This document shows, piece after piece, positions 49,606-51,796 of a DNA stretch of 64,000 bases. The position numbers were made by a program, and so were the translations under genes. Within the stretch, counting starts at the first letter, position 1; each line of letters begins with the position of its first letter. The notes under the pieces are model-generated. The model was given only the letters and a program-made list of their open reading frames with translations, was not told the origin of the DNA and did no database searches. The stretch comes from Candidatus Hodarchaeota archaeon (lineage in GTDB: Archaea > Asgardarchaeota > Lokiarchaeia > Sigyniarchaeales > SOKP01): the NCBI GenBank assembly GCA_048887225.1, contig JBHLJY010000007.1, positions 51,294 through 115,293 of the forward strand, read 5' to 3'.

Positions 49606-50154
49606 CTAAGCCTTTTTACCCAATTTGTTTAAAATATTATGGACCAGATTTTCAAAAGCCTTTTCTACATTCTCGCCATATTTTGCGGAAGTTTCTATGA
49701 AATCACTCGCATTAATTTCGCTCCCAAAACTACTACCCTCCTCTGTTGACACTACTCGCTGTTCCGATAAATCAGTCTTGTTTCCAATTAAAATATAAGT
49801 CCCTTCTTTTTTAACATATTTATTGAAATCCCGCAACCATTTAGAATTAATTGTCTCAAAAGTAGCACGTCTAGTTATGTCATAAACTAATAACGCTCCA
49901 ACGCATCCTTGGAAATACATTGAGCGAATTACATTATATTTTTCTTGTCCAGCAAGGTCCCACATTATAAGGCGAACATTAGCATTAATTTTTTCCAAAT
50001 GCATATCCTTTCTAATTATGTTCGCCCCAAGCGTAGGTTTATAATCTTCCTGAAACGAATGTTCTATATACTGGTTAATTAGAGATGTTTTACCTACAGC
50101 TGCATCTCCCAAAACCACTATTTTGAACACGAATTCTTTAACTTCTTCCGACAT
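49606..50154 (-). CDS. small GTPase, Rab-like
   Basis: G1 GDAAVGKTS, switch I TLGANI, G3 WDLAGQ, G4 GNKTD, G5 TSAKYG. Close paralogue of 50809..51345. Confidence 0.9.
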   Translation of the reverse strand: [182 protein letters not shown]

Positions 50155-50202
50155 TTTTAATATCTCTATCCTTGTAATTATTATATTTTTTTTATTCTTT
50201 AT

Positions 50203-50709
50203 TTATTTTTTCCATATTAATTTCAAAATATATGGTTTATGAGTAAGATCTGGTATCTTTTCATCTTCATTTGTATAAATAACTCTTCTATTGTCTGGTA
50301 TCGCTTTTTTTAAAGAAGTGACGAGAAAACCAGTGAATAAATTGCATGGAACTCCAACCTCACTGCAAAAAATACAATTTTGAATTTCAACTGTAACAGA
50401 ATTTTTTCCTTGATCTATTATTCGAACGGCCCAATTTGTTTTAATTAATACGTTAATTTCTTGAATTATTTCTTCAAAAGGTTTTCCCCAGGGAAAAAGA
50501 TAAAAAGCAAATTTTTTACCGACTTCATATTGAAGTCTGTAACATCCGTATAACAATAATTCTTGAGCTTTGATGATTTTCTTAAAAGATAAAAAATCTA
50601 TCGTATCGTTTGGATCTACATTTTTGTTATCTTTTATCTTTAACATATCAGCTTCTCTTAACACAGATTTCATTCCATCGTAATCAAGAATATCTAAATA
50701 AGCTTGCAA
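50203..50709 (-). CDS. V4R-like domain protein (partial motif), function unknown
   Basis: 168 aa, TTG start. IQNCIFCSEVGVPCNLFTGFLVTSL matches the first half of the V4R Cys motif (C..C.....PC....G.l). The terminal E..C...G..C.F block was not seen. Confidence 0.45.
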   Translation of the reverse strand: MQAYLDILDYDGMKSVLREADMLKIKDNKNVDPNDTIDFLSFKKIIKAQELLLYGCYRLQYEVGKKFAFYLFPWGKPFEEIIQEINVLIKTNWAVRIIDQGKNSVTVEIQNCIFCSEVGVPCNLFTGFLVTSLKKAIPDNRRVIYTNEDEKIPDLTHKPYILKLIWKK

Positions 50710-50808
50710 TAGAGCCGTAACAACCTTGTTTTTTACTTCCTCTTTATATTCGCCTACTATTAAAGTTCACCAATTATTAATATTGCAATCAACAAAATTT
50801 AATCCCAT

Positions 50809-51345
50809 TTAAATTTTCACTCCATAATTACTTAAAATGTTATAGGCTAAATTTAAAAACGCTTTTTCAACGTTTTTTCCAGTTTTGGCACTTGTTTCTA
50901 TGAATTCAATTGCTTTAATTCGCTCCGCCATGTTATGAGCATCATCTTTAAAAACATATCTTTGCTCTTCTAAATCGGCTTTGTTTCCAATTAAAATATA
51001 TGATCCCTCTTTTTCGACATGGTTTTTATAATCTGTAAGCCACTTATACTCAACATTTTCAAAGGAAGAATATCTAGTAATATCGTAAACTAATAACGCT
51101 CCTGCGCATCCTTCATAATATGCACCCCTAGTTTTTTCATATTGTTCTTGTCCAGCAATATCCCAGAGAATTAAACGAGCATTGGAATTAATTTGCTCTA
51201 ATTTGATGGTTTTCATGATTAAATTCACGCCCATAGTTGCTTTGTAATCTTCTTTAAACCTTTCCTCTACAAATTGGTTTACTAATGATGTTTTCCCAAC
51301 TCCAGTGTCTCCTAATACTGCAAGTTTTAATACGTAGTCTGACAT
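50809..51345 (-). CDS. small GTPase, Rab-like
   Basis: G1 GDTGVGKTS, switch I TMGVNL, G3 WDIAGQ, G4 GNKAD, G5 TSAKTG. Confidence 0.9.
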   Translation of the reverse strand: [178 protein letters not shown]

Positions 51346-51367
51346 TTTATCTTCCTTTTTTCTTTAT

Positions 51368-51796
51368 TTAAAGATCTAAAAGAGATAATCCAAATTGTGG
51401 ATCAACAGCACGATTTAATTTTTGACCAATTTCATAAATATAAACTTCTCCAGTAATGGAAACGATTGATGGTGTACTTAAATGACCCCCAATAATATTA
51501 TAATCCTCTCTACCAACTGATACATGGATATGTATTATTGGTTCTCCATCCTTATAAGAAATATTTCCCATGCAAGAAATTAATTCAACATTTTCTTCAA
51601 AAGTTTTAAAATTATATTTTTTTTCCTTAATATTAAAATATCCGATTGTGAATTTTTTAAAAGCTCCAATAACGTTGATTAATCCGGCTTTAATATTATA
51701 TTTTTTAACAATTTCTTTTATAGCATCAATTAAATCCTCATCAGCCATTACTCTCGCAACAATAACCCTACCGATATTTGTTTCGATACTTTTCAT
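51368..51796 (-). CDS. PPC / DUF296 domain protein
   Basis: 142 aa. Contains IGRVIVARV..DEDLIDAI, AGLINVIGAF, and ELISCMGNISYKDGEPIIHIHVSVG, typical of DUF296 (COG1661). Confidence 0.7.
   Translation of the reverse strand: MKSIETNIGRVIVARVMADEDLIDAIKEIVKKYNIKAGLINVIGAFKKFTIGYFNIKEKKYNFKTFEENVELISCMGNISYKDGEPIIHIHVSVGREDYNIIGGHLSTPSIVSITGEVYIYEIGQKLNRAVDPQFGLSLLDL

Follow-up and report, generated by a model that had tools for sequence, protein, structure and literature searches.

A V4R-Superfamily Protein Encoded beside a Rab-Like GTPase in a Conserved Gene Cluster of Lokiarchaeia-Type Asgard Archaea

Our analyses concerned a stretch of 64,000 nucleotides (nt) from an Asgard archaeon filed as Candidatus Hodarchaeota archaeon (contig JBHLJY010000007.1, positions 51,294 to 115,293), here called the window, and in particular cluster B, a group of four minus-strand open reading frames (ORFs) in it. 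These encode a PPC/DUF296 protein, a Rab-like small GTPase (B1), a protein that we refer to as MID, and a second Rab-like small GTPase (B2). ORFs of the window, which has a GC content of ∼30%, were taken from an ORF finder, and families were assigned with Pfam and NCBIfam models. The coordinates of the four genes and their spacers as called (22, 99, and 48 nt) reproduced those of a first-pass annotation made from the letters of the window. That annotation had also described the cluster as opening with a DUF296/PPC gene, and the Pfam match of its product is strong (PCC, PF03479; E = 2.2e-33; 115.5 bits, cut-off 25). The features of the cluster and its 3′ flank are as follows:

51368..51796, minus strand: PPC/DUF296 (Pfam PCC) protein, 142 amino acids (aa); first gene of the cluster here, in a tight pair with B1
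50809..51345, minus strand: B1, Rab-like small GTPase, 178 aa, "mid1" positional class; Pfam Ras, E = 1.7e-51
50203..50709, minus strand: MID as called by the ORF finder, 168 aa, TTG start
50203..50760, minus strand: MID with its probable ATA start, 185 aa; V4R superfamily, divergent, overall fold like that of H-NOX
50767..50771, minus strand: GGTGA, Shine-Dalgarno-like, 6 nt 5′ of the probable MID ATA and overlapping an in-frame TGA stop
49606..50154, minus strand: B2, Rab-like small GTPase, 182 aa, "down" class; Pfam Ras, E = 1.2e-51
49568..49575, minus strand: TTTATATA, TATA-like box in the spacer between B2 and the aminotransferase gene, from motif inspection by hand
48362..49525, minus strand: class I/II aminotransferase, 3′ of B2, a near-universal neighbor

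Conservation of cluster B and of the MID–GTPase pair

MID relatives were found at 115 loci, of which 80, from as many species-level genomes, were examined, with their ORFs classified by phmmer. The window and the relatives of the cluster belong to Promethearchaeota (Loki-type Asgard) metagenome-assembled genomes (MAGs), and cluster B is a conserved module specific to Lokiarchaeia-type Asgard archaea (Promethearchaeota). A co-oriented GTPase gene lies no more than 400 nt downstream of MID at 74 of 77 loci. The upstream side is more variable: PPC is found within 1.2 kb upstream of MID at 47 of 69 loci and a GTPase directly upstream at 34 of 69, and the remaining architectures include 21 of 69 loci with neither, where a radical-SAM-like gene stands instead. 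An upstream GTPase without PPC was seen at only 1 of 36 loci, and the distance from the PPC stop to the start of the next GTPase gene is short (median 17 nt, n = 35). The common architectures are GTPase-PPC-GTPase-MID-GTPase, PPC-GTPase-MID-GTPase (that of the window), PPC-MID-GTPase, and MID-GTPase, and nearly always the aminotransferase gene follows. Because the variants group by lineage on the MID tree, they can be ascribed to few events. Thus, the proposal that the arrangement extends beyond one genome and is something other than chance adjacency is borne out by its recurrence across the 80 genomes. The GTPase–x–GTPase order, which had been put forward as the conserved unit, does recur elsewhere, but only MID followed by its GTPase is near-universal.

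Some peculiarities of individual loci were also recorded. In one lineage (L002 to L004), a GNAT acetyltransferase gene (∼5652..6203) lies between MID and the downstream GTPase gene, and co-orientation is kept. Contig DATKTW010000179.1, which carries a full Asgard module, is filed under "Candidatus Nanopelagicaceae bacterium" and has probably been binned wrongly. Labels on close relatives range over Thor-, Odin-, Hod-, and Hermodarchaeota, and NCBI names are unreliable for these MAGs. Neither MK-D1 nor Lokiarchaeum ossiferum is named among the best 120 of 151 protein matches or among the 80 of 115 loci.

Distant MID-like proteins (16 to 31% identity) are encoded in unrelated contexts and still have a Ras-family GTPase gene downstream. 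At locus L088, the MID-like and GTPase genes come after CDC48; at L089, they come before a ribosomal-protein operon and overlap by 14 nt; and at L090, the order is GTPase, MID-like, GTPase, SfsA. The GTPases of these three loci are nearest to the B2 class, with identities of 58.5, 51.3, and 44.5%, respectively, compared to 30 to 41% for the three other GTPases of the window, namely A1 and A2 of a second cluster, cassette A, and a fifth GTPase (G5). Moreover, the divergence of the distant-locus GTPases parallels that of their MID-like partners. Since even remote relatives of MID, with quite other neighbors, have a B2-type GTPase gene downstream, the sequences point to MID and the B2-type GTPase as an old, co-diverging pair. 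The coupling of the two is well supported; the mechanism that we infer for it is set out below.

The start, family, and fold of MID

A typical MID homolog has ∼188 aa and the N terminus MIGDYKG.VKNKVVTALLQAY. In the window, the 17 in-frame codons 5′ of the called TTG (50709) encode IVGEYKEEVKNKVVTAL, the conserved N terminus of the family, and a TGA stop precedes them. L009 and L010 have TTA where the window has the called TTG, and the differences between L008 to L010 and the window across the upstream codons are mostly synonymous. In the subclade made up of the window and L008 to L010, the canonical ATG of the other genomes has become ATA or GTA, and ATA lies exactly 6 nt after the conserved GGTGA in 4 of 4 genomes (the window, L008, L009, and L010). 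The start of MID is most likely the non-canonical ATA at 50760, 51 nt upstream of the called start, and the spacer between B1 and MID would therefore be 48 nt rather than 99.

MID has no Pfam or NCBIfam match, and its profile found no match among PDB sequences. When 76 family members were scanned at E values of up to 1, none matched Pfam V4R (PF02830). Indeed, the family is unrepresented in Pfam and NCBIfam, and an exhaustive HMMER scan of 1.84 billion cluster representatives with the MID profile matched only 31 proteins, the named ones all from Promethearchaeota or Helarchaeales MAGs. The AlphaFold2 (AF2) model of MID has a mean predicted local distance difference test score (pLDDT) of 88 and a predicted template modeling score (pTM) of 0.86. 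In a Foldseek search of this model against the PDB, the best 35 matches were all H-NOX proteins, over the full length (E∼1e-6; template modeling [TM] scores of 0.56 to 0.64), followed by YslB/DUF2507 (E = 1e-3) and then TRAPPC3/Bet3 (E = 1e-3 to 2e-2; TM 0.36 to 0.48). H-NOX, YslB/DUF2507, V4R, and TRAPPC3/Bet3 constitute a single fold superfamily. A link at the level of sequence is provided by a bridge protein of 194 aa, P0384. It scores 45 bits with the Pfam V4R model, above the cut-off of 31, which makes it a true V4R protein, and it matches the MID profile with E = 1.3e-11 and, in hhalign, with a probability of 98% (E = 1.8e-13 over 162 columns). Because P0384 matches both, MID is a divergent, sequence-isolated member of the V4R superfamily, which agrees with the earlier description of the middle protein as V4R-like. 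The structural homology of Thor-TRAPPC3, V4R/PoxR, and H-NOX has been reported by Tran et al. 2024 (PMC10933270).

The alignments also showed which V4R features MID retains. The stretch CIFCSEVGVPCNLFTGFL, which the first-pass annotation took for the first half of a V4R motif, is present in the 168-aa ORF and holds the first V4R cysteine (C139, in PCNLFTGFL) and the following G-x-L helix, here G-F-L. Both C-terminal V4R cysteines are absent and, with them, the canonical three-cysteine pattern; in intermediate MID relatives, a fourth Cys stands at the canonical last V4R position. Instead, C129-x2-C132-x6-C139 and H174 are all invariant or near-invariant, H174, near the C terminus, being the sole His among the conserved columns. 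These three Cys and one His probably form a metal (Zn) or thiol/redox site reaching from the β-sheet to the following helix. Zn sites with varying ligand positions, as well as ligand cavities, have been described for Asgard TRAPPC3/V4R proteins (Tran et al. 2024, PMC10933270).

MID as a heme-binding H-NOX was considered and rejected: when MID was mapped onto H-NOX positions by secondary-structure position rather than by residue-level structural alignment, its conserved columns contained neither the proximal His of the signaling helix nor YxSxR, the motif that binds the heme propionates. HNOB matched only 1 of the 76 MID members, weakly (E = 0.12). Nothing points to heme, and heme binding is unlikely. 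Weak, short, below-threshold matches to PF14196 (ATC_hydrolase) occurred in 27 of the 76 members and were left uninterpreted. In a giant protein of 7571 aa, P0388, six stretches match positions ∼85 to 140 of the MID profile (E = 1.8e-8), constituting a repeated MID-like segment.

Comparison with known systems places MID among small sensor-type domains and sets it apart from each of them. With the V4R proteins (MJ1460, the PoxR/MopR/DmpR/XylR sensor domains, and MsvR), it has in common the fold superfamily, the sequence link via P0384, the first Cys with its G-x-L helix, a Cys-based metal/redox site that is likely from the conserved residues, and the character of a small stand-alone sensor-type domain. 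Unlike them, it has a new upstream C-x2-C and His in place of the C-terminal cysteines, has an extra N-terminal helical part that brings it to the size of an H-NOX protein, and stands free of any DNA-binding or AAA+ domain, with a Ras-superfamily GTPase for its partner. H-NOX proteins (e.g., Tt H-NOX, 1U4H) are its best full-length structural matches, with TM scores of 0.60 to 0.64 over ∼195 columns and a similar length, but with 11 to 16% identity. H-NOX genes typically adjoin genes for signaling proteins, and MID is likewise stand-alone and encoded beside a signaling protein. TRAPPC3/Bet3 and Thor-TRAPPC3 (7YH2, 7YH3) belong to the same superfamily, with Foldseek E values of 1e-3 to 2e-2 for MID and ∼1e-5 for mid-A, the middle protein of cassette A; the eukaryotic Bet3/TRAPPC3 family acts with Rab GTPases. 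Asgard members bind Zn (Tran et al. 2024, PMC10933270). The TM score of MID to these structures is low, and no longin partner gene is nearby; the cluster B operon contains neither a longin nor a roadblock gene.

The GTPases, the PPC protein, and cassette A

B1 and B2 (Pfam Ras, ∼175 bits, E about 1e-51) are 57% identical over their full lengths and 31 to 42% identical to the other three GTPases of the window, so that they are, as first noted, each other's closest relatives there. The G1 to G5 motifs, checked as GxxxxGKS/T, the switch I Thr, DxxGQ, NKxD, and SAK, are intact, with the catalytic Gln, in B1, B2, and the consensuses of the three positional classes, whereas the switch I and II sequences of the B-type GTPases differ by class. 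A C-terminal Cys prenylation motif, a mark of the eukaryotic Rab family proper, was found in 0 of 137 B-type GTPases, none of which has a Cys in its last 6 residues. Judged by these motifs, the B-type GTPases look like catalytically competent, unprenylated switches. The best solved relative of B2 is the Thorarchaeota Rab 7EZB (E = 1.4e-40), with Ypt31 and Rab11 next. B2 is a typical "down" member, and B1 falls with L008 to L010 in a divergent mid1 subgroup, being 93, 79, and 79% identical to the GTPases at the same position in those genomes and ∼53% identical to the rest of its class.

In a neighbor-joining (NJ) tree of 154 sequences, the B-type GTPases form one clade (144/144), with A1, A2, and the fifth GTPase outside it. 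The "down" class has 77 of 77 members in its best clade (mean identity 72.8%), "up2" 23 of 25 (63.8%), and "mid1" 28 of 37 (61.2%); identity between the classes is ∼54%. A1 and A2 are 74 and 63% identical to their own orthologs, respectively, and A1 is 31 to 35% identical to the B clade. Because the B types form one clade without A1 and A2, the tree assigns the B-clade paralogs to an old tandem duplication inside operon B and not to a cassette duplication, an issue that the first-pass annotation had left to a phylogeny. In the fifth GTPase (29852..30376, minus strand), DxxGQ is replaced by DFGGEE, without the catalytic Gln, and NKxD by GGKAD; this switch may hydrolyze slowly or not at all, or its nucleotide specificity may be altered.

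The closest solved structure to the PPC protein is PH0802 (2DT4; E = 1e-23). In 18 homologs, H89, H91, H105, and C75 are invariant, and this His triad with a Cys suggests a metal or active site. The window protein is equal in length to the stand-alone prokaryotic PPC/DUF296 proteins (PH0802 2DT4, 3HTN, and 2H6L) and shares their conserved His motif. The prokaryotic members have no established function, and databases call them "DNA-binding protein" by analogy. A fixed pairing with a Rab-like GTPase, like that of the present PPC protein, was not found described in the searchable literature.

Cassette A, about which the first-pass annotation had proposed that it and cluster B carry the same three-gene core, lies on the plus strand and comprises the following genes:

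37898..38431, plus strand: A1, GTPase, 177 aa; Pfam Ras, E = 2.3e-42
38462..38755, plus strand: thioredoxin-fold protein, 97 aa, CAPC motif; Pfam Thioredoxin_2 and Thioredoxin, E∼1e-6
38808..39296, plus strand: mid-A, V4R/DUF2507-type protein, 162 aa as called; assigned from sub-threshold Pfam matches and fold search
39389..39919, plus strand: A2, GTPase, 176 aa; Pfam Ras, E = 1.8e-49

The mid-A gene was called from a GTG at 38808; nearly all homologs have 159 aa and begin with MDRQLL, and the true start is probably the ATG at 38817. Its Pfam scores are below the cut-offs for both V4R (20.5 bits; cut-off 31) and DUF2507 (31 bits; cut-off 35), and most mid-A homologs carry both in precomputed annotation. 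The AF2 model of mid-A (pLDDT 84) matched the V4R protein MJ1460 first in Foldseek (E = 3e-6), with YslB, TRAPPC3/Bet3, and PoxR/MopR also found (E from 3e-6 to 1e-4), and the mid-A profile matched the MJ1460 sequence with E = 0.004. Thus, mid-A appears to be a more canonical V4R protein than MID. The NCBIfam MsvR model was matched only in its V4R part (positions 92 to 236; E = 4e-9, 36.5 bits against a cut-off of 220), and mid-A lacks the helix-turn-helix region of that transcription factor. The V4R cysteines of MsvR act as a redox switch (PMC3729527), and MsvR is reduced by the thioredoxin system (PMC7278568). Because mid-A matches the MsvR V4R domain and directly follows a thioredoxin gene, a thiol-redox input to a GTPase in cassette A is plausible by analogy.

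A census of cassette A in 80 metagenome loci found an A1-type GTPase before the thioredoxin gene at 51 of 52 loci and the thioredoxin gene directly upstream of the V4R gene at 60 of 65, and a co-oriented A2 downstream of the V4R gene at only 24 of 58. The conserved core is therefore GTPase, thioredoxin, and V4R protein, with A2 a syntenic neighbor of no conserved orientation. Since the core of A is GTPase-thioredoxin-V4R and that of B is MID followed by its GTPase, GTPase-V4R-GTPase is not the selected unit in either cassette, and the second flanking GTPase is optional in both. What the two have in common is a V4R-superfamily protein fixed beside one particular Rab-like GTPase. In most loci with full flanks (L092 to L171), the TBP-A2 block 3′ of the V4R gene runs opposite to its orientation in the window, a recurrent local inversion.

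A proposed mechanism and its alternatives

H-NOX and V4R domains are sensors of small molecules, metals, or redox state that control adjacent or fused signaling modules. By analogy with these sensor domains, we propose, with confidence and doubt in roughly equal measure, that MID is a Cys/His-metal protein of sensor fold that binds and controls its B2-type GTPase and that PPC and its GTPase are a second dyad. The module would be built of dyads in which a small accessory protein comes first and a Rab-like GTPase of its own second, with MID and the B2-type GTPase as the invariant one. MID would bind its cognate GTPase directly, its V4R pocket would sense a ligand, a metal, or redox state, and it would couple the sensed state to the nucleotide cycle or the output of the GTPase. 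PPC and the B1-type GTPase would form an evolutionarily labile second dyad, added upstream via tandem duplication of the GTPase, and an optional third paralogous GTPase could have been added upstream likewise; the present genome would accordingly read PPC, B1, MID, B2. The analyses show the gene content, the fold class, the homology with V4R, the conserved and co-diverging pair of MID and GTPase, the intact GTPase motifs, and a tandem instead of a cassette origin for the paralogs; that the two proteins bind each other, that MID holds a metal and acts as a sensor, which partner regulates which, and that the genes are transcribed together are the parts that we infer. A parallel in the window lends support, as mid-A, of a separate V4R family, is fixed beside a thioredoxin and a GTPase of a different clade. 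A stronger version, in which V4R protein and Rab-like GTPase are an ancient Asgard regulator–switch pair and a prokaryotic forerunner of the tie between Bet3-family TRAPP subunits and Rab GTPases, with MID-type proteins bound directly to their GTPase and setting its nucleotide state according to a ligand, metal, or redox signal, and with PPC–GTPase as a second, entirely undescribed class of small-GTPase partner, seems unlikely to us.

Several observations weigh against the sensor proposal. The 80 core loci all belong to a single, rather narrow clade, in which MID identity does not fall below 51%, so that the adjacency count in good part reflects shared ancestry, and the truly independent observations are few, namely the three distant lineages and cassette A. 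In a mirror-tree comparison, the pairwise distances of MID and the "down" GTPase do correlate, with r = 0.80 (partial r of 0.59 with the neighboring aminotransferase controlled), which speaks for co-divergence, but the correlation is confounded by phylogeny and suggestive only; PPC shows no excess correlation of that kind. The spacer between MID and its GTPase gene is loose (median 103 nt), and because it is not tight, the two may have separate promoters. The Cys/His site was read from alignments and not from model coordinates, and the conserved columns of MID contain no invariant Arg to serve as the finger of a GTPase-activating protein (GAP). Finally, Tran et al. 2024 (PMC10933270) state that the GTPase genes of MK-D1 do not, as a rule, share operons with genes for TRAPPC3, roadblock, or longin proteins.

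Among other explanations, MID, probably as a dimer as in the Bet3 and V4R families, could be a dedicated guanine nucleotide exchange factor (GEF) or scaffold for the adjacent GTPase. It would then be the minimal prokaryotic equivalent of the TRAPP core, which contains Bet3 and activates Rab1 and Rab11, with no small-molecule sensing and a purely structural metal site. We regard this as possible and, on balance, unlikely. MID and mid-A both match TRAPPC3/Bet3 structures, MID co-diverges with its GTPase, and the best eukaryotic relatives of B2, Ypt31 and Rab11, are TRAPPII substrates, although a top match to Rab11 may be generic for Asgard Rab-like proteins. The main Rab-binding surface of TRAPP, however, is provided by the longin subunits Trs23 and Bet5, for which the operon offers neither a longin nor a roadblock gene, and MID is structurally nearer to H-NOX than to Bet3 (TM scores above). 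Thor-TRAPPC3, a Zn-bound homodimer resembling TRAPPC3/C6, speaks for an exchange factor, and the geometry in the same study agrees with longin subunits as the Rab-binding surface of TRAPP (Tran et al. 2024, PMC10933270). Regulation could also run the other way, the GTPases being upstream switches and MID and PPC their effectors or clients, for example, carriers of a ligand or metal under GTPase control. A role in ligand binding or transport has been suggested for Asgard TRAPPC3/V4R proteins (Tran et al. 2024, PMC10933270). The invariant His triad and Cys of PPC, as a possible metal or active site, would fit such a role, as would the presence of an own GTPase after each accessory protein, with PPC ∼17 nt from its partner. 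At the sequence level nothing separates effector from sensor. Where H-NOX or V4R domains stand alone, they usually form the input side of signaling and not its output, and we judge the effector arrangement to be distinctly unlikely.

Very unlikely, in our assessment, is synteny without function, in which the proteins act independently within a stable Lokiarchaeia region (AAA-MoxR, cluster, aminotransferase, M24 peptidase, and CDC48). The aminotransferase, M24, CDC48, and MoxR genes are indeed conserved neighbors without an obvious functional link, MID–GTPase spacers are ∼100 nt, and most Asgard eukaryotic signature protein (ESP) genes lie outside conserved neighborhoods (Liu et al.). Yet the distant MID-like loci have different flanks and still a B2-type GTPase downstream, in one case with overlapping genes; an independent V4R family, that of cassette A, is fixed beside another GTPase; and the upstream architecture has been reshuffled repeatedly with the MID–GTPase pair intact. 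Scarcely credible is the model of the first-pass annotation, in which cassettes A and B are copies of a duplicated GTPase-V4R-GTPase module with swapped accessory genes. Gene order in the window is superficially alike, the two middle proteins share a fold superfamily, and A2 is nearer to the B clade (∼41%) than A1 or G5 is, so that a very ancient V4R-to-GTPase dyad is conceivable. However, compared protein by protein, the middle proteins are different families of that superfamily, MID and mid-A showing no similarity by BLASTP and a family hhalign probability of 0.3%. Since the B-type GTPases form a clade of their own without A1 and A2, and since the conserved cores differ, cassette duplication was rejected, and a recent duplication is already contradicted.

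Regarding earlier work, Tran et al. 2024 (PMC10933270) determined the structures of Thor-Rab and Thor-TRAPPC3 and modeled two MK-D1 V4R/TRAPPC3-like proteins, and they report no operons of TRAPPC3 with GTPases. The notable conserved Asgard ESP neighborhoods of Liu et al. are ESCRT and LAMTOR1-Rab-DENN, and V4R is not mentioned in the main text of that study. The terms "4-vinyl reductase" and "small GTPase" were not found together in the searchable literature, an earlier description elsewhere being possible, and no description of PPC/DUF296 paired with a GTPase in archaea was found there either, in keeping with the earlier remark that such a link had not been described. As far as the searchable literature goes, then, neither the conserved V4R-type/GTPase pairing nor the PPC/GTPase pairing has been described. 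They resemble MglA/MglB (a roadblock GAP) and the Asgard LAMTOR1-like/Rab-like/DENN operon (Liu et al.) in that a Ras-superfamily GTPase is conserved beside a small non-enzymatic partner, and differ in that the partners are V4R-superfamily and PPC/DUF296 proteins rather than roadblock, longin, or DENN proteins.

Asgard archaea have dozens of Rab-, Arf-, and Rag-like GTPases, almost none of them matched to a regulator or target (cf. PMC4917890), and genome layout hampers such matching (Tran et al. 2024, PMC10933270). The locus yields specific conserved pairs, MID with the B2-type GTPase, PPC with the B1-type GTPase, and the A1-type GTPase with thioredoxin and V4R protein, and the paired proteins are small and soluble and thus suited to pull-downs, nucleotide-exchange assays, and co-crystallization. 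If the interaction is true, it would bear on the pre-eukaryotic origin of Rab regulation, because MID shares its fold superfamily with the Bet3 subunits of the Rab GEF TRAPP. In addition, MID and its relatives make up a protein family that has no model in Pfam or NCBIfam, and the PPC–GTPase pairing is the first hint from gene context as to what prokaryotic PPC/DUF296 proteins do.

Of the genes around the cluster, the aminotransferase gene keeps a constant spacer of ∼88 nt to B2, and its GTG start as listed (MIYIMKDL) probably lies upstream of the true one. Because the spacer holds TTTATATA, which we take to be the archaeal TATA-box consensus, the gene is probably a separate unit; the box suggests a promoter of its own and a syntenic neighbor outside the module, weak evidence in an AT-rich genome. 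TATA-like and Shine-Dalgarno-like motifs were inspected by hand and given little weight at a genome GC content of ∼28%. On the other side, a MoxR-type AAA+ gene (52034..52930, plus strand) diverges from cluster B across an intergenic region of 237 nt (51797..52033; 15% GC), and such a divergent neighbor is present in roughly half of the loci with enough upstream flank. Near cassette A, a gene on the minus strand (34243..34707) encodes a protein of 154 aa with no Pfam family, which might be another GTPase-related accessory protein, e.g., roadblock- or longin-like; L005 has an unannotated gene for 153 aa at the matching position.

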